Positions 4,018 to 59,479 of a DNA stretch of 64,000 bases are shown piece after piece (position 1 is the stretch's first letter; each line of letters begins with the position of its first letter). The position numbers and the translations under genes are program-made. Location: the NCBI GenBank assembly GCA_903838415.1, contig CAILYI010000279.1, positions 11,270-75,269 of the forward strand, in the 5' to 3' direction. Source of the DNA: an uncultured Anaerolineae bacterium. GTDB taxonomy: Bacteria; Chloroflexota; Anaerolineae; Anaerolineales; Villigracilaceae. The notes beneath the pieces were generated by a model, which saw only the letters and a program-made list of their open reading frames with translations, ran no database searches and had not been told where the DNA came from.

Positions 4018-5745
4018 ATGACAACCGAATTTAATATCTTTAACCTGCGCCCGGAACTGGTGCAGGCCATTACTGCGCTTGGTTATGTGGAACCCACCCC
4101 CATCCAGGCTGGCATGATCCCGCTCATGCTGACCGGCGTCGACGTGATCGGCCAGGCTCAAACTGGCACCGGTAAGACCGCCGCCTTCGCCCTCCCCATT
4201 TTGAACAATTTAGAAACCGGCTTGCGAGCGCCCCAGGCGCTTGTTATGGCTCCGACTCGCGAACTGGCTTTGCAGGTGGCTGATGCAATGACCACCTTCG
4301 GGCAATTCTGCCGCGTCAGAGTCCTGCCTGTCTATGGCGGCGCACCCTACATCAAACAAATTAACGAGCTCAAACGTGGCGTGGATATCGTCGTTGGCAC
4401 GCCCGGACGTTTGATTGACCTGATGAAGCGCGGCGTGCTCGACCTCAGCATGGTTCGCACGCTGGTCCTGGACGAAGCTGATGAAATGCTCAGCATGGGC
4501 TTCATCGAAGACATCGAAACCATCATGGCGGCCACGCCCGTTGAGCGACAGACCGCTCTCTTTTCTGCCACCATGCCCACGCCCATTCGCCGCCTGGCGG
4601 ATAAATACATGCGCGATCCGCAGTCGGTCACGATTACGCGCGCGCAGGTGACGGTGGAAGGTACCGAACAGCGCTACTATATGGTCAATGAGCATGAAAA
4701 AGCCGCAGTATTAACGCGACTTTTCGAAGTGGAGGAAATCTCTTCGGCTTTGATTTTTGTCCGCACCCGCGCCGGAACCGGAGAACTGGCCAATGCGCTC
4801 TCCGTCCGGGGCTTTGCTTCCGAAGTGCTGAATGGGGATCTCAATCAGGATGCCCGCGAGCGCACCCTGAGCCGCTTCCGCGCCGGACAGATCAAGGTGC
4901 TCGTGGCGACAGATGTTGCCGCGCGCGGCTTGGATATTGACGATATTTCCCACGTTTTCAACTACGATCTGCCCGATGATCCTGAAATCTACGTTCATCG
5001 TGTGGGACGCACCGGCCGCGCCGGAAAAACCGGTATCGCCATTTCGTTGGTGCCGCTTTCTGAGAAGCGCCGTTTAAAGGATATTGAACGCTTTACCCGC
5101 TCGAAGCTGGTTCAGGGTACCATTCCCACCGTCGAGGAAATCGTTGCCCGCCGCGAAAACGAACTGACCAATCAGATCACCGTCTGGCTGACGCGTGGAC
5201 GCTGCAAGACGGAACGCACCATCGTCGAAAAGCTGGTCGCTAATGGCGTGGATCCGCTCGAAATCGCCGCTGTTGCCCTGAAAATTGCGCGTGGCGATGA
5301 AAAGCAGCGCCCGATTGCGCCGATCAGCGAACTTGTCGAAACCCGTTCCACCCGCCCGGTGCGCGGTGGCCTGCGCCGCGATTCTGGCGAGAAACGTCCT
5401 TATGCTGAAAAACGTGCCTTTGGTGGCGAAAAGAGCAGCTTTGAGCGCCCGGCCCATTCCGTGCGCCGCGAAGGGTTCCCGCGTGCCAAATTTGGTGGCA
5501 CATCCAACGAGCCGGGCATGGTCCGCATGACCATGAGCATGGGCAAAGAACACGGAATTCGTCCATCCGATGTGGTTGGCGCGATCGCCTACCACGCCGA
5601 CATCCCTGGCAACACGATCGGCAAGATTTTTATCGAAGATCAACATACCCTGGTCGATGTTCCGGAACAGTTTGTCAACCAGGTGCTGGCCAAGGCTGGC
5701 AAGTACAGCATCCGCAAGCAGGCTTTTACGGTCGAAAAGGCATAA
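4018..5745 (+). CDS. deaD: DEAD-box ATP-dependent RNA helicase (DeaD/CsdA-like) with a C-terminal DbpA-type RNA-binding domain
   Basis: Q-motif 'PTPIQ', Walker A 'AQTGTGKT', 'VLDEADEML', 'SAT' and 'HRVGRTGRAG'. The C-terminal 'RMTMSMGKEHGIRPSDVVGAI' is DbpA-like. AGGAG lies 5 nt before the ATG at 4018; the ORF track starts at a TTG at 4015. Confidence 0.93.
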   Translation: MTTEFNIFNLRPELVQAITALGYVEPTPIQAGMIPLMLTGVDVIGQAQTGTGKTAAFALPILNNLETGLRAPQALVMAPTRELALQVADAMTTFGQFCRVRVLPVYGGAPYIKQINELKRGVDIVVGTPGRLIDLMKRGVLDLSMVRTLVLDEADEMLSMGFIEDIETIMAATPVERQTALFSATMPTPIRRLADKYMRDPQSVTITRAQVTVEGTEQRYYMVNEHEKAAVLTRLFEVEEISSALIFVRTRAGTGELANALSVRGFASEVLNGDLNQDARERTLSRFRAGQIKVLVATDVAARGLDIDDISHVFNYDLPDDPEIYVHRVGRTGRAGKTGIAISLVPLSEKRRLKDIERFTRSKLVQGTIPTVEEIVARRENELTNQITVWLTRGRCKTERTIVEKLVANGVDPLEIAAVALKIARGDEKQRPIAPISELVETRSTRPVRGGLRRDSGEKRPYAEKRAFGGEKSSFERPAHSVRREGFPRAKFGGTSNEPGMVRMTMSMGKEHGIRPSDVVGAIAYHADIPGNTIGKIFIEDQHTLVDVPEQFVNQVLAKAGKYSIRKQAFTVEKA

Positions 5746-49083: not shown

Positions 49084-49467
49084 TTAAGGTTGCGAAGAAA
49101 CTATATTGTCGAGAGAAACTTGCAGAACTTGGGCAATGGCTGATAAAACATCAAGTGAGCCTTTGCGCTTACTGGTTTCCAACTGTGACAAATATGGAAC
49201 GCTAATCCCCGCTTTTTTGGCGGTCTCTGGCTGTGACATGCCGCGATACTCACGCCAGACTTTTATTGGGTTTTCGCCATCGAGAATGGCATAAATTACT
49301 TTGCTAGGAACTAATTCATCATCGCCGCGTTCTAAAGCCGCCTTTGCGCTGTCATAATCTTGGACGTCTTGCAACATTTCGGCTTTTTCGACGAGTTCCA
49401 AATAGATTTTATAAGGAATGACTGCCCATTCTGGCTGATCACCTTGTTTGATTACCTGTACGCTCAT
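49084..49467 (-). CDS. Type II antitoxin with a C-terminal Xre-type HTH domain
   Basis: 'IKVWREYRGMSQPETAKKAGISVPYLSQLETSKR' is an HTH_XRE segment. The gene overlaps the toxin gene by 4 nt. Confidence 0.8.
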   Translation of the reverse strand: MSVQVIKQGDQPEWAVIPYKIYLELVEKAEMLQDVQDYDSAKAALERGDDELVPSKVIYAILDGENPIKVWREYRGMSQPETAKKAGISVPYLSQLETSKRKGSLDVLSAIAQVLQVSLDNIVSSQP

Positions 49468-49721
49468 TTGTACACCTCGGCCCTGGGGGCAATTTTCATA
49501 ACAATAATTATCACCTGGTCTTTGTGGATTTCATAAATCACCCGCCAATCGCCAACCCACAACCGATAACCTGACCTACCTTGCAGTTTTTTGGCGTTTG
49601 AGATTGATGCAAATGGGTCAACGGCGACTTGCTCCATCTTTTCCCGAATCAACTGGGCAGTATTTCGGGGCATTTTGAGCAGGGTTTTCGCGGCTTGGGT
49701 GGTGTAGGTGATTTTGTACAC
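49464..49721 (-). CDS. Type II toxin, RelE/ParE family
   Basis: 85 aa. 'GYRLWVGDWRVIYEIHKDQVIIIVMKIAPRAEVY' is a typical RelE/ParE C-terminus. Confidence 0.82.
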   Translation of the reverse strand: MYKITYTTQAAKTLLKMPRNTAQLIREKMEQVAVDPFASISNAKKLQGRSGYRLWVGDWRVIYEIHKDQVIIIVMKIAPRAEVYK

Positions 49722-49831: not shown

Positions 49832-49940
49832 TCACCAGATGCCGAATTCGCCGCACGCCCCGTTGACGAAAAAACAGAACCACCGTTCAACCCAATTTTA
49901 CGGAACCATTGCGGCTGCTTTGATAATTTGACCGGAGCTG

Positions 49941-50318
49941 TTGTTTCGTGGCCCGGAATCGTTATTTCGGGGCGATGTTTCCTTGTTTCACGGGCATGAA
50001 TCTTTATTGCGGGCCAATGGTCCCTTGTTACGGAGTTCCGTTCCTTTGCTACGGGACTTCGTTCCTTTGTTACGGATACCCGTTTCCGACTGGCTCCGCC
50101 GAATTTCCCGATTTCCGCCGTGCTGTGGTTGACTTGCGCTGCAATGTTACTGACTTGCGGTGCAATGTTATTGACTTACGTCACGATGTTATTGACTTGT
50201 GCTGCGATGTTATTGACTTACGCCGTGATGTTCCTTTGTTACGGGGGCATGTTCCTTTGCTACGGAGTTCCGTTCCTTTCCTACGGAGCTACGTTCCTTG
50301 TTACGGAGTTATGTTCGC
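49941..50318. repeat. Array of ~18 tandem 21-bp units in two sequence families
   Basis: Manual phasing gives units starting at 49941, 49962, 49983 and so on to 50298. A-type units resemble TTGTTACGGAGTTCCGTTCCT. B-type units resemble TGACTTACGTCACGATGTTAT. Confidence 0.9.
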
Positions 50319-50433
50319 AAGATGATTGACGCAGAACTACCTTTTGGACGAGTTCAAGCCCGTTTTCTTCTCTCGATGTGGCTCTGCTAACCGGCTGGTT
50401 TTTGAGAAACGATGTGTTGGGTTGCTACTTGAA

Positions 50434-55537: not shown

Positions 55538-57262
55538 TTAAAATCCCAATTCCTTCAACAGGTCTCCTTCGCTGTGATTACCCTTGTTTCCGAGCAAATC
55601 GCGCCAGAACTGGTCATCATAACGGCGCGAGCGCACCGGCAGCGGCATGGGCACGCCCCAGCCCAGCAGCAGCACTTCCTCCTTGGGCTGCAGCCGCGCC
55701 AGCATCCCGCGGATGGCTTCGCGCCCCGAAAGACCCGAAAGCGCGGCCTGGATGTCATCGTCATCGCCCAGCCAGCCGCTGATGCGCGTGCCGAGTTGCG
55801 ACATGACCTCGTCATAAATTTGCGAGGGGCGCTGATCCACGATCAACAGCGTCACGTAATATTTGCGCAGTTCGCGCGCGATGGTGGCAAAGGTGGTCTG
55901 AGCGGCCATTTCGCGGTTGAGCAGTTTGTGGGCTTCCTCCACCACGATCACCAGCGGGCGCGGTTCGCGCGTGCCATGTCCGCGGAATTCGTTGGTGCGC
56001 TTTTCCCAGGCGTCGCGGATGTGGCGCGTCAGCAGGTTGGAGACCAGCAGGTCATCCAGGTCGCTTTCAAAATCGCCAAACGACAACACCACATGCTGCC
56101 CGGCTTCCAGCGCCTTGATGATCTCGGCGATGCTGTCGGTGGCGGGCTTTTCGACGATGTAGGGCTTGCCGAACAGGCGGCGCAGTTTGTCGTGCAGGGC
56201 CTCGGCGGCCATCACGTTCACGCCACTCCCATCCGCCCAGGCCGCCACACTCTCGGGATGCGGCACTTTCTTGATTTTGCCCGTCTTCTCGTCTTCCACT
56301 TCCATTTCTTCGCGGTTCATGGCCTTGAAACGCGCGAACCAGTCGCTTTTGAACGAGGTGTACAGCGCGTTGAGCGTGGTGGGCGTGGTGTCCTTCAGGT
56401 TCAGCTCGCGCGCCAGCATTTCCACGTCCGCCGCGGAGATATCGCGCATGGCAATTTCGAGATTGAAATCGGGCACCTGGCTGTGGCGGATTCTGGCTCC
56501 CGCGCCCAATCCAACCACGCGCACTTTACTCTGGAATTTGGTCTTTAATCCGATTACGGGCATTTTCGTGTCTGACGCCACGTCGTCGAAGCCGTACTCG
56601 TTGTGCATATCCAGCACCAGCACCGAGGCCTTGTTGTAATGCATCAACCCGGCCAGTACCAGCCGCGTCAGGAAGGATTTGCCTGTGCCGGTAGCGCCAA
56701 ACACACCCGAGGAGCGCTGCACAAACCGATCCAGGTTGATGCAGACGGGATGTCCCTGCTCGCGGGTGTAGCCGATGACGAAGTTGCCTTCCTTTTCCGG
56801 GTCGCCGAAAATGGCGGCGATATCGGTCTGGTCGGCCAGGGAGACGGGGGCGTGGTGCAGCGGCACGGTCTTGACCGGGATGGGGCGCGGGTCTTCGGGG
56901 TGAGCGGCCCGCCAGAGTTTGTAGTCGGGAGTGCCCGGTTCGGGGCCGCGTTCCAGCATCAGCGCGGGCAGGATTTCCAGGTTGGTGTAGAGTGTCTGCC
57001 CGTGCAGGGCTTTGGCCAGGGCGGGTGGCAGGCGCGTCTCGGATTGTTCATCCGCGAAGCGCGGGTCGGTCGCTCCCAGCTTCAGGTCGGTGACCAGGCC
57101 GTAGAAACGGTAGTCGCCGCTGTCGATGACGACAAAGCCGCCCTCCTGCACGTCGAGCGGATCCACCGTCAGGCGCGCCGAGAACGACTCTTTCAATCCA
57201 CCGCCGACGATGTAGCCGATTTTGGATTGCTGATTTTCGATTTTTGATTGTTGATTGGCCAT
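55538..57262 (-). CDS. herA: HerA/DUF87-family (FtsK-HerA superfamily) ATPase
   Basis: N-terminal HAS-barrel-like 'IGYIVGGGL...GGFVVIDSGDYRFYGLVTDLKL'. Walker A 'GATGTGKS', Walker B 'LVIVVEEAHKLL' and 'TLLIVDQRPSQI'. Confidence 0.85.
   Translation of the reverse strand: MANQQSKIENQQSKIGYIVGGGLKESFSARLTVDPLDVQEGGFVVIDSGDYRFYGLVTDLKLGATDPRFADEQSETRLPPALAKALHGQTLYTNLEILPALMLERGPEPGTPDYKLWRAAHPEDPRPIPVKTVPLHHAPVSLADQTDIAAIFGDPEKEGNFVIGYTREQGHPVCINLDRFVQRSSGVFGATGTGKSFLTRLVLAGLMHYNKASVLVLDMHNEYGFDDVASDTKMPVIGLKTKFQSKVRVVGLGAGARIRHSQVPDFNLEIAMRDISAADVEMLARELNLKDTTPTTLNALYTSFKSDWFARFKAMNREEMEVEDEKTGKIKKVPHPESVAAWADGSGVNVMAAEALHDKLRRLFGKPYIVEKPATDSIAEIIKALEAGQHVVLSFGDFESDLDDLLVSNLLTRHIRDAWEKRTNEFRGHGTREPRPLVIVVEEAHKLLNREMAAQTTFATIARELRKYYVTLLIVDQRPSQIYDEVMSQLGTRISGWLGDDDDIQAALSGLSGREAIRGMLARLQPKEEVLLLGWGVPMPLPVRSRRYDDQFWRDLLGNKGNHSEGDLLKELGF
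57218..57259. repeat. Six tandem heptanucleotides (GATTNNN on the + strand) covering codons 2-15 of herA
   Basis: GATTTTG GATTGCT GATTTTC GATTTTT GATTGTT GATTGGC. On the coding strand this encodes 'NQQSKIENQQSKIG'. Confidence 0.85.
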
Positions 57263-57272
57263 CTTGTCCTCG

Positions 57273-57629
57273 TTATTTCATATTGGCGCGCGCCGTTTTG
57301 ATGGACGCCGTAAAAATGGCGACCAACTCATCGGCTTCTTTGAGTAAATCTTTCAGTTTTTCCGCCGGGAAAATCCCTGCTTCTTGCAGCAATTCCATCC
57401 AATAAAGACATTCGTCAGCTTCTTCGAGCGAGATGCCCGCTTTGGCGACAAAATCGGCTTTTGATTTTCCCCGACAGGCAGCGCGATAATTTGCGCCTAC
57501 CGATATGCCAGCCCGCAAAAGTTGATGCCCGATGGTTTTGGCAGTGGTTGTGTTTGGCAAAGCTTCAACCAGCCGGATGACCCGCAAGCTGAACTGTTTG
57601 GTCCGCAGTTTTAATTCTTCCTCGTTCAT
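57273..57629 (-). CDS. Four-helix-bundle protein (23S rRNA intervening-sequence / Avd-like family)
   Basis: The pattern 'FSLRVIRLVEALP...IGHQLLRAGISVGANYRAA.RGKSKADF..K..I.LEEADE..YW..L' is characteristic of the TIGR02436/PF05635 family. Confidence 0.85.
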   Translation of the reverse strand: MNEEELKLRTKQFSLRVIRLVEALPNTTTAKTIGHQLLRAGISVGANYRAACRGKSKADFVAKAGISLEEADECLYWMELLQEAGIFPAEKLKDLLKEADELVAIFTASIKTARANMK

Positions 57630-57652
57630 CGCAGACTCCCGTGCTATCCCAC

Positions 57653-57687
57653 AATCGAAAATCGGAAATCAAAAATCTCCAATCAGA
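57653..57687. repeat. Five tandem heptanucleotides (AATCNNN on the + strand), inverted relative to 57218-57259
   Basis: AATCGAA AATCGGA AATCAAA AATCTCC AATCAGA. The array overlaps the stop codon of the 196-aa gene. Confidence 0.85.
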
Positions 57688-58273
57688 GCACTTCTCCAAG
57701 CGCGCCTAAAACGCTCATCAGCGTGGGATAGTCATCCCGCAGCAGGGTGATCAACTCTTGCGTGGCTTTTTCCTTCCATTGGGGGTTTTGCGCGGCCCCC
57801 GCTTGCTGGATGTGCGCCGCCAGGATTTCGCCAATCGGTATATCCTGGGCGCGGAGGATGTGACGGAAGTAGCCGAAGCGACCGGCGGTGGTGAAGCGTT
57901 TCAGGTCGGCGTTATCGCACAGGTAGATCACATCCAAACTCAGCGGCGGACGTGGCGGCAGGAGATGGAAGATTTTGCCGTCAAGTTCGTAGCCGACCGC
58001 GAGCACTGACATTTCCACCGGCACGATGCGGCGTTCACGGTTGTCCTTCATCACTTCGTTGGTGACGTTGTCGGCGGTGACCAACTGGCGTACCAGCCCG
58101 TCATCGTCGATGTGGATGTCGTAGATCAGGCCGTAGACCTGGTAGTCGTTGCCCAGCGGGGCGCGGACCAGCGCGCCAAAGGCCGGGGTTTCAAATTGCG
58201 AAACGGAGCACCCGGCGATGAAGCCGGTTGTCCCGGCGCGCAGCAAACGTCCAATTTCAATTGATGACATCAT
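57683..58273 (-). CDS. Hypothetical 196-aa protein whose N-terminus is a HAS-barrel paralog of the HerA N-terminus
   Basis: 'IGRLLRAGTTGFIAG...GALVRAPLGNDYQVYGLIYDIHI' aligns with HerA 'IGYIVGGGLKESFSA...GGFVVIDSGDYRFYGLVTDLKL'. No ATPase motifs. Confidence 0.7.
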   Translation of the reverse strand: MMSSIEIGRLLRAGTTGFIAGCSVSQFETPAFGALVRAPLGNDYQVYGLIYDIHIDDDGLVRQLVTADNVTNEVMKDNRERRIVPVEMSVLAVGYELDGKIFHLLPPRPPLSLDVIYLCDNADLKRFTTAGRFGYFRHILRAQDIPIGEILAAHIQQAGAAQNPQWKEKATQELITLLRDDYPTLMSVLGALGEVL

Positions 58274-58282
58274 GCCTCCACT

Positions 58283-59479
58283 TTAATAGCGGGTTTTCCC
58301 CGGCAGCTCTTTGGCGGATTGTTTATGGGAGCCGTCGTCGGTTTCGGCCCCGGCGCGGCGCAGTTCCAGCTCGAGCAATTGCGCGATTTGATTTTGTTCT
58401 TCGAACGAAACGACGGCCGTTTCGTGGGCGCGATGCAGCAAATATGGATACGGTTTGGCGCCCATGATGCGGCATTGATGGATCAGAATGGCGTGCAGCA
58501 TGTCCAGCTTTTCAGCATCGTCAGCCACCCATTGGGGGATTTCAACGCGCACCGGCCAGGGATGACCTTTGGTGCCGACGTTGAGATAGAAGAAGTGCAG
58601 GCTGAGCACGCCGCTGTAGCGTTTTTCGTTTTTGGCCTGGATTTTGAAAACAGCCGAGCGTTCTCCGGGTTGGAGCAGCGGATTGGTTTTATCCCCAAAC
58701 AGCCAGCGGTCGCTGACGCCGCGCAGGGGATGATATTCGCGCAGTTTTTTCAGGTCGTCATCGCTGGCGATGGCAAGTTCGAGCAGGCGGATGACCAGGT
58801 CGGCGGCGGGTTTGTCGACGTAACCGGCGGTGAGGATGCCGCGTGTTTGCAGGCGCGAGAGCACTGCCAGGTAGCGGGTGAGACCGGCTTCGTAGGCGCT
58901 GGCGTCTTCGCCGCTGGCGGAGCCCCATAGTTCGATCGGCCCATCGGTGAAGGTGATGATCGGGGCGCTGTCGCCATCCATTTGGGCGGCCAGGTCGTAG
59001 AGTTTGGTGCGCTCCTGTAAGTCGCGCTGCAGGGCGACCATGCCATCCGAGATGAGGCCGGAGGCGGTGTAGAGTTCTTCGTCAAATAACAACTGACTGT
59101 CGGTGAAGATTTGCGGGGTGGCGCCGCTGTTCAGGCGTAAAACAATCGCGCCGACGTTGATCAGGCCGAATTGCAGCGCGGCGTGCCGGTCGGGGTTGAT
59201 CTGTGAGCCGTCAGCGGCGATTAAAACCGCGTTTAACGGCGGGTCGGGCGGCGGGGCGTGAAAGTCGAGCCGCTCCTTAAATGGGGCGGCGCAGCGGATG
59301 GCGGGATCGGCCGCTTTGACGGTTTCCAGTTTCCAGCGCAATTCTTCCAAATTATCGGCATGCAGATTGAGCAAGGCGCGCGCCTGCTCACGGCGTTCGT
59401 CCAGCGTCTTTTTGCGCTGTTGGGCGTTGGCGCCAATTTCGCGGATTTTCTGGTAGACCTGCTGAAAGTCAATCGCCAT
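58283..59479 (-). CDS. nurA: NurA-domain nuclease-like protein
   Basis: 'VLIAADGSQINPDRH' gives the catalytic Asp context. 'PIITFTDGPIELWG' and 'TAGYVDKPAADLV' are also present. The stop lies 9 nt before the next gene. Confidence 0.75.
   Translation of the reverse strand: MAIDFQQVYQKIREIGANAQQRKKTLDERREQARALLNLHADNLEELRWKLETVKAADPAIRCAAPFKERLDFHAPPPDPPLNAVLIAADGSQINPDRHAALQFGLINVGAIVLRLNSGATPQIFTDSQLLFDEELYTASGLISDGMVALQRDLQERTKLYDLAAQMDGDSAPIITFTDGPIELWGSASGEDASAYEAGLTRYLAVLSRLQTRGILTAGYVDKPAADLVIRLLELAIASDDDLKKLREYHPLRGVSDRWLFGDKTNPLLQPGERSAVFKIQAKNEKRYSGVLSLHFFYLNVGTKGHPWPVRVEIPQWVADDAEKLDMLHAILIHQCRIMGAKPYPYLLHRAHETAVVSFEEQNQIAQLLELELRRAGAETDDGSHKQSAKELPGKTRY

Follow-up and report, generated by a model that had tools for sequence, protein, structure and literature searches.

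Intervening sequences (IVSs) of 23S rRNA that carry an open reading frame (ORF), known from Coxiella burnetii and Leptospira, are about 430-470 nt long and have complementary termini around a gene of the S23p/PF05635 family. The IVS of Coxiella measures 428 nt and has a 28-bp terminal stem, and RNase III cleaves it at the first of three to four GACAGAT heptamers, which vary in number between strains and are followed by the S23p ORF (Warrier et al., PMC4990558). An element of similar layout is described here from a protein-coding operon of an uncultured Anaerolineae bacterium (Chloroflexota, Villigracilaceae; assembly GCA_903838415.1, contig CAILYI010000279.1, positions 11,270 to 75,269); this whole stretch of 64,000 nt was analysed and is called the window below. 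The element, at window positions 57215-57687 on the minus strand, surrounds a gene for a 118-aa four-helix-bundle (4HB) protein with inverted arrays of heptanucleotides, and it is probably an IVS-type palindromic gene cassette that was inserted at the p196-herA junction of a nurA-herA operon, the proposed steps of its acquisition and expression being included in this assessment.

Heptamers of related sequence have been reported from Xanthomonas and Nostoc, where GGGAATC and GGGGAYT units were interpreted as G-quadruplex simple repeats; each Xanthomonas genome contains 70-75 convergent (inverted) pairs, located within about 50 nt of gene ends and transcribed, and the text of that study makes no mention of S23p or 4HB genes (Rehm et al. 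2015, PMC4692102). Avd, a 4HB protein of diversity-generating retroelements (DGRs), is a positively charged pentameric barrel in which all five protomers touch an RNA stem-loop, and in the cryo-electron microscopy structure of Avd with RNA in the DGR ribonucleoprotein bases are flipped out into the crevices that separate the protomers (bioRxiv 10.1101/2023.10.23.563531). Proteins matching PF05635 or TIGR02436 are very common, and Avd is the one among them with a known function.

Short palindromes at gene junctions that are co-transcribed with host genes, as is presumed for the element in the window, include the Rickettsia palindromic elements (RPEs) and palindromes resembling MITEs (miniature inverted-repeat transposable elements) or repetitive extragenic palindromes (REPs). 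RPEs can insert in frame and become translated within host proteins. In the open-access PMC and bioRxiv literature, no paper was found that ties heptad arrays to 4HB genes outside the Coxiella IVS or that gives an account of the GxxExxY cassettes and their arrays considered below, and the cross-phylum regularities of heptads and 4HB genes appear not to have been described previously.

Organization of the cassette

Along the window's minus strand the gene order is nurA (58283-59479; PF09376), the first gene of the host operon, p196 (57683-58273), which encodes 196 aa and has no family match, the 4HB gene (57273-57629) and herA (55538-57262), assigned by family match as a HAS-barrel and DUF87 ATPase gene. 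The 4HB gene is bracketed by six GATTNNN units at 57218-57259 of the plus strand (GATTTTG, GATTGCT, GATTTTC, GATTTTT, GATTGTT, GATTGGC) and five AATCNNN units at 57653-57687 (AATCGAA, AATCGGA, AATCAAA, AATCTCC, AATCAGA). Tandem Repeats Finder (TRF) recovers both arrays with a period of 7, the one at 57218-57259 being scored also as 1.9 copies of a 21-nt unit with 89% matches; the coordinates and unit counts in an initial annotation of this DNA, made from the sequence alone, were accurate. The pattern GATTNNNGATTNNNGATT, which stands for three units with at most one mismatch, has seven matches in the window, all of them inside the two arrays, and a mean of 0.52 matches in the shuffled window, with none of 100 shuffles reaching seven. 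The two arms, of 33-34 nt, are 79% complementary, in agreement with the 26 of 33 positions that had been matched by hand.

Read in the direction of the operon, the cassette would be composed of a 5' arm of five GATTKNN heptads, a ribosome-binding site, the 4HB ORF, a second ribosome-binding site with an ATG, and a 3' arm of six heptads of the reverse complement. The 5' arm (57650-57687), recognized from the sequence, TRF and the pattern count, has the sense-strand heptads GATTGGA, GATTTTT, GATTTCC, GATTTTC and GATTGTG, and the TGA of p196 (57683-57685), which marks the upstream insertion boundary, falls within the first of them, as the annotation had noted for one of the two arms. A Shine-Dalgarno-like GGGAG (57636-57640) lies 6 nt ahead of the 4HB ATG, and its GGAG is kept in related cassettes (alignment columns 146-149). 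Beyond the ORF, GAGGA, 4 nt and an ATG (57260-57271) form a ribosome-binding site and start codon that lie within the cassette and now serve herA, the herA ATG (57260-57262) being placed 10 nt past the 4HB stop codon. The 3' arm (57215-57259), again evident from the sequence and TRF, comprises AATCAAC, AATCAAA, AATCGAA, AATCAGC, AATCCAA and AATCGGC.

The GC content is 46-52% over the cassette and 57-68% in the flanking genes, a dip of about 10-15 points that extends the low values previously obtained from a few lines of the insert. Within the cassette, a scan for promoters and terminators gave no candidate of either kind on its own (minus) strand, and Rfam had no match in 56900-58000. The segment is an inserted cassette, by prediction promoterless, that is co-oriented with the host genes, packed closely between them and bounded by inverted heptad arrays.

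Its kinship to 23S rRNA IVSs, which had been proposed from its geometry, holds with respect to the protein family, the length, the complementary termini and the heptamers before the ORF. Because tandem heptamers (GACAGAT, three to four copies) also stand between the stem and the ORF start in the Coxiella IVS, the window element can be regarded as an IVS-type cassette in an mRNA operon. It differs from IVSs in being placed between two protein-coding genes and not inside an rRNA gene (23S helix 9, 25 or 45), in having both arms composed wholly of heptads, and in having one arm translated within the downstream protein; moreover, the Coxiella ORF is decaying and probably untranslated, whereas that of the window is preceded by a good ribosome-binding site and subject to strong purifying selection. 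Complementary termini are likewise shared with the terminal inverted repeats of MITEs, but MITEs have no coding capacity, and MITE-like or REP-like palindromes have unique inverted repeats instead of periodic arms and no counterpart to the conserved 118-aa protein gene in the loop.

The four-helix-bundle protein

The assignment of the 118-aa product to the IVS/Avd family, first made from the sequence alone, is confirmed by matches to PF05635 (66.4 bits; cut-off 33.8) and TIGR02436 (91.6 bits; cut-off 24) and by structural comparison. The AlphaFold monomer model (predicted local distance difference test score 94) is an up-down four-helix bundle with helices at residues 3-23, 28-53, 57-83 and 89-115. 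In Foldseek its best matches are the S23-family structures 2RLD (template modelling (TM) scores 0.87/0.91) and 2GSC (0.82/0.86), followed by Avd (4DWL, 0.75/0.82; 8UB7 was matched as well), and 2RLD is the sole match in the Protein Data Bank by sequence. Only a monomer was modelled here, and 2RLD and 2GSC each match it through chains A-E; a pentamer has been reported for Xcc0516 and for Avd (PMC4990558; bioRxiv 10.1101/2023.10.23.563531).

Comparison with orthologues gave a dN/dS ratio of 0.04, and in distant pairs the synonymous sites are saturated with the protein still 84-90% identical. The 4HB protein is under strong purifying selection and functional. The subfamily of the window protein includes 7,966 database clusters at E<=1e-5, with matches in hundreds of species of the GTDB. 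One orthologue (L015:3001-3357) has an in-frame TAA (LLQ*AG) with both arms and herA intact, representing either a pseudogene or a sequencing error.

The shared fold makes Avd a precedent for a 4HB pentamer that reads a repetitive RNA element, and it is also what could suggest that the segment was left by a DGR, with the 4HB protein as its Avd (TM 0.75-0.82 to 4DWL; 8UB7). Such an origin is extremely improbable, as identity to Avd is about 10%, the best structural and sequence matches are to the stand-alone S23-family proteins 2RLD and 2GSC, the gene list of the identical contig L001 contains no reverse transcriptase within 6 kb on either side, and the repeats are 7-nt arrays and not a pair of template and variable repeats.

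Empty and alternatively filled p196-herA junctions

The state of the junction in related operons was assessed in 80 metagenomic loci that were collected via p196, and hence unselected for the 4HB gene; both p196 and herA were visible in 47 of them. The two genes abut (<60 nt) in six operons (L117, L135, L149, L156, L170 and L171), where the 8-22 nt between them hold just a stop codon, a ribosome-binding site and an ATG, and where HerA begins with MEQSKIGY, MNKNQPIGY and similar sequences, the MEQ(S/R)TKIGY type included. In 11 operons the junction consists of 60-275 nt of non-coding DNA, mostly CACAAAG/CTTTGTG palindromes. The 4HB gene was found immediately ahead of herA in four operons, and a GxxExxY gene (TIGR04256, about 137 aa) occurs in 18, directly before herA in 17 of these. 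The remaining operons, and some of the above, have other inserts, namely genes for a metallophosphoesterase, a DNA methyltransferase, a small K+ channel and a membrane protein of about 470 aa. All junction inserts are co-oriented with the operon. As empty, palindrome-filled, 4HB-filled, GxxExxY-filled and otherwise filled operons coexist, the junction is a hot spot of insertion. The insertion into the HerA operon that had been postulated is strongly supported by the empty junctions of six relatives; the 4HB gene is not a universal component of orthologous operons, and the comparison of operons with and without it reveals both empty and differently occupied sites. Such sporadic occurrence among relatives is shared with ORF-bearing IVSs, for which it suggests horizontal transfer (PMC4990558).

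Most of the GxxExxY genes at the junction (L098, L105, L107, L109, L122, L131, L136, L141, L148 and others) lie inside inverted arrays of their own, with CAMRAMG cores spaced 9-10 nt apart and about three cores per arm, and with these arrays they are a second type of ORF-in-palindrome cassette. They resemble the 4HB cassette in that a small co-oriented ORF is placed right upstream of herA, mostly within inverted periodic arrays, and in being interchangeable with it, but the protein fold (PD-(D/E)XK-like) and the arms are different. For instance, L118 and L128 have the order membrane protein, 4HB gene, herA, and L122 and L123 have the same membrane protein followed by GxxExxY and herA. In L118 (4538-4632) two arm repeats of the GxxExxY type (aacacgaagggcacaaag; compared with L122:4524-4570) are kept immediately 5' of the GATT arm, a relic that points to replacement of one cassette by another at a single site. 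ORF-less CACAAAG/CTTTGTG hairpins fill the p196-herA gap in L104, L106, L151, L162, L164 and L165, and about four tandem copies of this palindromic hairpin are present in L148 (3602-4100).

A copy of the cassette outside the herA junction defines its ends. The protein P0115, 83% identical to the window protein, is encoded on a 1.4-Mb contig (locus L009) between an LPG_synthase_TM gene and an amino oxidase gene. Homology between L009 and five copies from the herA site begins with the 5' arm's first heptad and ends with the last one of the 3' arm, and the sequences are unrelated beyond these points; the string 'ggtcaagATGGC', from the region of the ribosome-binding site and start, is common to the window and to this copy in an unrelated locus. 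Since the homology ends at the arms, the repeat-ORF-repeat segment has moved as one piece, in line with the earlier proposal of a cassette that carries its own terminal repeats. An integron cassette was considered and rejected, there being two periodic arms instead of a single attC site and no integrase.

Several observations weigh against the view that the cassette is a mobile element defined by its arms. No direct repeat that could represent a target-site duplication is visible at the outer limits of the cassette, whether in the window or in L009; at the 3' junction the arm blends into native herA codons (AAAATCGG), which look like a heptad. Neither the cassette nor the list of genes for 6 kb to either side of it (identical contig L001) includes a transposase, integrase or reverse transcriptase. 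Nearly all close (>80%) relatives that were looked up occupy the same herA junction, and in this clade the cassette is old and vertically inherited; just one transposed copy (L009) was found, and the 64-kb window has a single copy. In L011 and L015 the 5' arm is decayed with the gene intact, which implies that pairing is dispensable after fixation. Lastly, that the protein binds the arrays is purely what we infer.

Use of the 3' arm by herA

The cassette has left its mark on the HerA protein. In the window, codons 3-16 of herA (NQQSKIENQQSKIG) correspond to six heptads and encode NQQSKIE NQQSKIG, and the duplicated heptapeptide pointed out in the initial annotation results from an in-frame duplication of 21 nt, that is, three heptads. 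The herA start is the cassette ATG, with six heptads translated, in the window, L002, L010, L174, L011, L015 and L169, and nine heptads are translated into herA in L118 and L128. In L014, L016, L175 and L176 the 3' arm is short, decayed and untranslated, and herA retains a ribosome-binding site and start codon of its own (MEIQRTKIGY and the like). A translated arm thus has six or nine heptads in every orthologue, though five is the commonest number elsewhere. In this lineage herA has adopted the 3' arm together with the cassette ATG as its 5' end, and the number of heptads is therefore a multiple of three. The in-frame translation of the arm is reminiscent of the RPEs.

The translated peptide differs between copies (NQQSKIENQQSKIG, NQKSEIQNQKSQIG, NNQQSEIENQKSAIG), but the positions of the AATC cores do not. 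The 42-nt arrays of the window and L010 have a single difference, with a dS of about 1.6 for the adjacent ORF, and because the array is nearly unchanged despite such divergence the constraint acts on the nucleotides. The same data bear on a possible role of the repeats as a slippage-prone, phase-variable switch of herA in which the 4HB gene would be incidental. The location of 7-nt repeats within the first 16 codons, where the gain or loss of one unit shifts the frame, would suit such a switch, as would the variation of the Coxiella heptamer copy number between strains (PMC4990558); however, the units are imperfect, with 4-5 of 7 positions conserved, the translated copy number is six (or nine) in all orthologues even at a dS of 1.6 or more, and the near-identical strains represented by the window, L001 and L094 have no length change, all of which makes this explanation very improbable.

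An arm is clearly translated in a second case, uppS of L031. As a general rule, the supply of a downstream start by the cassette was rejected: the L009 oxidase starts 114 nt downstream at MKIAIIGAG, many loci have a 3' arm that ends just ahead of the host ATG, and herA keeps its own ATG in the four orthologues with an untranslated arm. In L009 the amino oxidase as predicted by the gene caller has 38 additional codons (4368-4481), which run across the 3' arm back to the cassette ATG, and the true start is likely to be MKIAIIGAG at 4482. Gene callers can be expected to run downstream genes through the 3' arm, which is real for herA here and probably spurious in L009, and the periodic arms are open to confusion with other repeat classes in annotation.

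Pairing of the arms

Arms of the GATT class flank the gene on both sides in 41 loci. Their heptads give the logo G(0.9) A(0.97) T(0.84) T(0.95) G/T N N, alike in both arms; the number of heptads per arm peaks sharply at five (21 of 41 loci for the 5' arm and 20 of 41 for the 3' arm). Cognate arms pair better than non-cognate arms of the same class (-0.91 versus -0.61 kcal/mol per nt; better in 37 of 41 loci, p = 3.6e-8), from which it follows that the free spacer positions co-vary between the two arms. No excess of G.U pairs was detected among the sense-strand mismatches (23 of G.U type versus 32 of A.C type), and sense and antisense duplex energies did not differ (48 versus 36 loci, p = 0.23). 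The complementarity of the arms is maintained, and neither strand test supports the sense RNA as the target of that maintenance.

The imperfect duplex of about 33 bp that the initial annotation had drawn for the minus-strand transcript stands in part. In the window the arm-arm duplex has an energy of -30.1 kcal/mol, with 0 of 1000 shuffles as good, and the stem is present in the minimum free energy (MFE) fold of 57200-57700. The fold of the whole 501-nt region does not differ from its shuffles (z = -0.02), which is uninformative about the stem because the ORF dominates, and arm-only duplexes and ensemble pair counts were used in its place. When the context is enlarged by 100-300 nt per side, to 701 and 1101 nt, the long-range stem is gone from the ensemble. 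Duplex energies computed from 100-nt flanks were noisy, with z < -3 in just 29 of 84 loci, and were replaced by counts of cores at exact spacing.

These results are relevant to an explanation in which the arms pair in the nurA-herA transcript (about 33 bp) and RNase III cuts out the 4HB cistron, thereby uncoupling or down-regulating herA. In its favour are the stable duplex and its presence in the 501-nt MFE fold, the complementarity of cognate arms beyond the shared core, and the homologous Coxiella stem, which is cut by RNase III at the first heptamer (PMC4990558). Yet the stem is absent from the ensemble at 701 and 1101 nt, the whole-region fold is unremarkable, the sense strand has neither a G.U excess nor an energy advantage over the antisense strand, and in the window the antisense duplex is the more stable one (-36.3 kcal/mol). 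Unlike in the rRNA IVSs, stem cleavage would take away the start codon of herA, whose only in-frame start is located between the loop and the 3' arm, inside the part that would be removed. In addition, ribosomes ending p196 and starting herA would open both ends of the stem, and the operon is intact in L011 and L015 with their decayed 5' arm. As the present function of the arms, an RNase III stem would be a possible but minority reading, and the explanation as a whole is rather unlikely.

Distribution across phyla

A scan of GTDB (one genome per species) with the window protein gave at least 600 stretches, at least 528 of them confirmed, and the best 80 loci were used. These loci, with 56-86% protein identity, are from Chloroflexota, Planctomycetota, Acidobacteriota, Cyanobacteriota and Verrucomicrobiota, and further from Bacteroidota, Spirochaetota, Nitrospinota, Proteobacteria and a lineage of the candidate phyla radiation. 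In a census of the 100-nt flanks of 84 distinct 4HB loci, in which a 4-nt core had to recur at least three times at exact spacing, 7-nt arrays were present upstream in 60 loci and downstream in 52, compared with 0-2 loci for spacings of 5, 6, 8, 9 or 10 nt and with 15 of 627 random control segments of 100 nt taken from these loci away from the flanks. In 31 loci the downstream core is the upstream one in reverse complement if three or more units are required on both sides and in 47 if two suffice on one of them; it is a direct copy in eight. The sequence of the heptad varies by lineage (GATTNNN, GAATGCG, CAGAAGT, TTACGAA) and the period is constant. Lag-7 autocorrelation with a mismatch penalty of -2 was discarded, since it missed free-spacer arrays such as that of the window.

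The 278.5 kb collected via p196 contain seven GATT/AATC arrays, each of them no more than 150 nt away from one of the five 4HB genes, whose neighbourhoods make up less than 2% of the sequence, and none of the seven is near a GxxExxY gene. More distant homologues on plasmids of cultured organisms are found in Nostoc punctiforme pNPUN01 (39% identity), with four GTCGGAR units and their inverse, on a plasmid of Treponema saccharophilum (33% identity), with heptads of GGAAAGT/CTCTCCG type on both sides that form no simple inverse pair, and in Gloeocapsa PCC 7428 (64% identity), where the cassette fills the gap between DUF1156 and HEPN_Swt1-DUF499 genes with 2-3 heptads on each side. The suggestion that other 4HB genes might be flanked by such arrays is thus amply borne out across phyla. 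The arrays do recur at unrelated loci, which had been named as evidence that would speak against a cassette; they are seen in other genomes, but mostly beside 4HB genes or as ORF-less hairpins of the same type, and such occurrences extend the finding and do not refute the cassette interpretation.

Heptad hairpins that lack an ORF, the inverse array coming immediately after the 5' array, are present in genomes with 4HB cassettes (L030:123-194, L043:1567-1654 and 2105-2195, L067:2147-2255, L039:3908-4118); their presence in the same genomes, as in L030, L043 and L067, is a feature in common with MITE-like and REP-like palindromes. An array of 13 GATTNGR units (L010:7699-7786) is found 3.3 kb from the cassette, with no adjacent 4HB gene, inside or after a DEAD/HNH helicase gene. 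On a Bernardetia plasmid (L184, NZ_CP147018.1) heptads of AATCTAA type appear to be direct on both sides, as in the 8 of 84 direct loci.

The Xanthomonas and Nostoc heptamers resemble the window arms in their AATC/GATT core (GGGAATC read in another phase is AATCGGG), in their location between co-oriented ORFs and in a small preferred unit number, but that number is four there and five here. Neither window array contains a GGG run on either strand, hence no set of four or more G-tracts as in the G-quadruplex heptamers, and quadruplex potential would therefore not be the common denominator.

Genes adjacent to 4HB cassettes

The gene upstream of the 4HB gene is co-oriented with it in 68 of 80 loci, and the 5' arm essentially fills the gap between the two, given that the median distance from the neighbour's stop to the 4HB ATG is 63 nt; the downstream gene is co-oriented in 52 of 79 loci. 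The neighbours are very diverse, with 87 Pfam families in 60 upstream genes and 79 in 49 downstream genes, and include purA, nuo genes, hsp90, tRNA synthetases, acrB, uppS, tldD/pmbA and dprA. In four Acidobacteriota (L052, L053, L082, L083) the order is tRNA-Sec, 4HB cassette and dprA, and the 5' arm begins within a few nucleotides of the 3' end of tRNA-Sec. Such promiscuity argues against a function tied to HerA. It also bears on the possibility that the 4HB protein is a dedicated subunit or regulator of NurA-HerA and the repeats an operon-specific signal of translation or mRNA stability, with no foreign cassette involved. The gene is kept directly upstream of herA in many Anaerolineales assemblies, has the low dN/dS of 0.04 and is tightly coupled in frame to herA at a distance of 10 nt, all of which such a role would explain. 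Nevertheless, related operons lack the gene or have GxxExxY instead, homologues with the same arms stand beside the families counted above, including tRNA-Sec/dprA, acrB, uppS, nuo and restriction or bacteriophage exclusion (BREX) genes, and the GC content dips across the cassette, so that a dedicated NurA-HerA component is improbable.

Some 4HB cassettes are located between defence-type genes. In L179, a contig from IMG/VR, the flanks are an unassigned gene and PglZ; in L037 they are a ResIII helicase gene and N6_Mtase/Methylase_S; and in L177 and L178, on plasmids NC_019759.1 and NZ_CP128402.1, they are DUF1156 and HEPN_Swt1-DUF499, an arrangement that a cyanobacterium shares with a Chloroflexota plasmid. 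A preference for defence genes was considered and set aside: restriction, BREX and HEPN examples exist, yet the neighbours overall are very diverse. Elsewhere in the window, in apparently non-coding DNA at 49940-50320, units of 21 nt that belong to two families (about TTGACTTGCGCTGCAATGTTA and GTTCCTTTGTTACGGAGTTCC) form a block of direct tandem repeats; beside it, at 49084-49721 on the minus strand, lie a RelE/HigB-like gene and another that is HTH antitoxin-like.

Possible origin and significance

It is plausible that the cassette is, or was, a selfish element that is expressed by read-through transcription and translational coupling within the nurA operon, nurA being the presumed source of the read-through, and that it was acquired, spread or exchanged through its arms. 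Recombination at the arrays is suggested by the swaps of cassettes at one site and by native herA codons (CAATCAAAAATCGG) that look like two heptads. The conserved core of 4-5 nt, the free spacer and the preference for five units suggest recognition in a 7-nt register by an oligomer, and the most economical recogniser would be the cassette's own, presumably pentameric, 4HB protein. Alternatively, the arms may pair in the transcript as a stem of the RNase III type, as in the Coxiella 23S IVS.

A broader proposal, which is tentative and on balance doubtful, is that 4HB and GxxExxY genes with inverted periodic arrays form an undescribed, phylum-spanning class of palindromic cassettes in intercistronic junctions and rRNA helices, that the heptads are binding sites of a pentamer, and that the heptamers known from Xanthomonas, Nostoc and Coxiella represent the arms of such cassettes or solo remnants of them. 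Each protomer might then contact one GAUU(G/U) core, with five cores per arm, akin to the way in which Avd grips its RNA stem-loop.

The strict association of arrays and genes across phyla ties the operon-borne 4HB copies to the classical rRNA intervening sequences, names a concrete candidate ligand of five GAUU(G/U)NN units, and supplies a possible reason why heptameric repeats are over-represented in bacterial genomes. If the broader proposal is true, the origin of ORF-bearing rRNA IVSs would be explained, and PF05635, a family of unknown function outside DGRs, would gain a testable molecular function.

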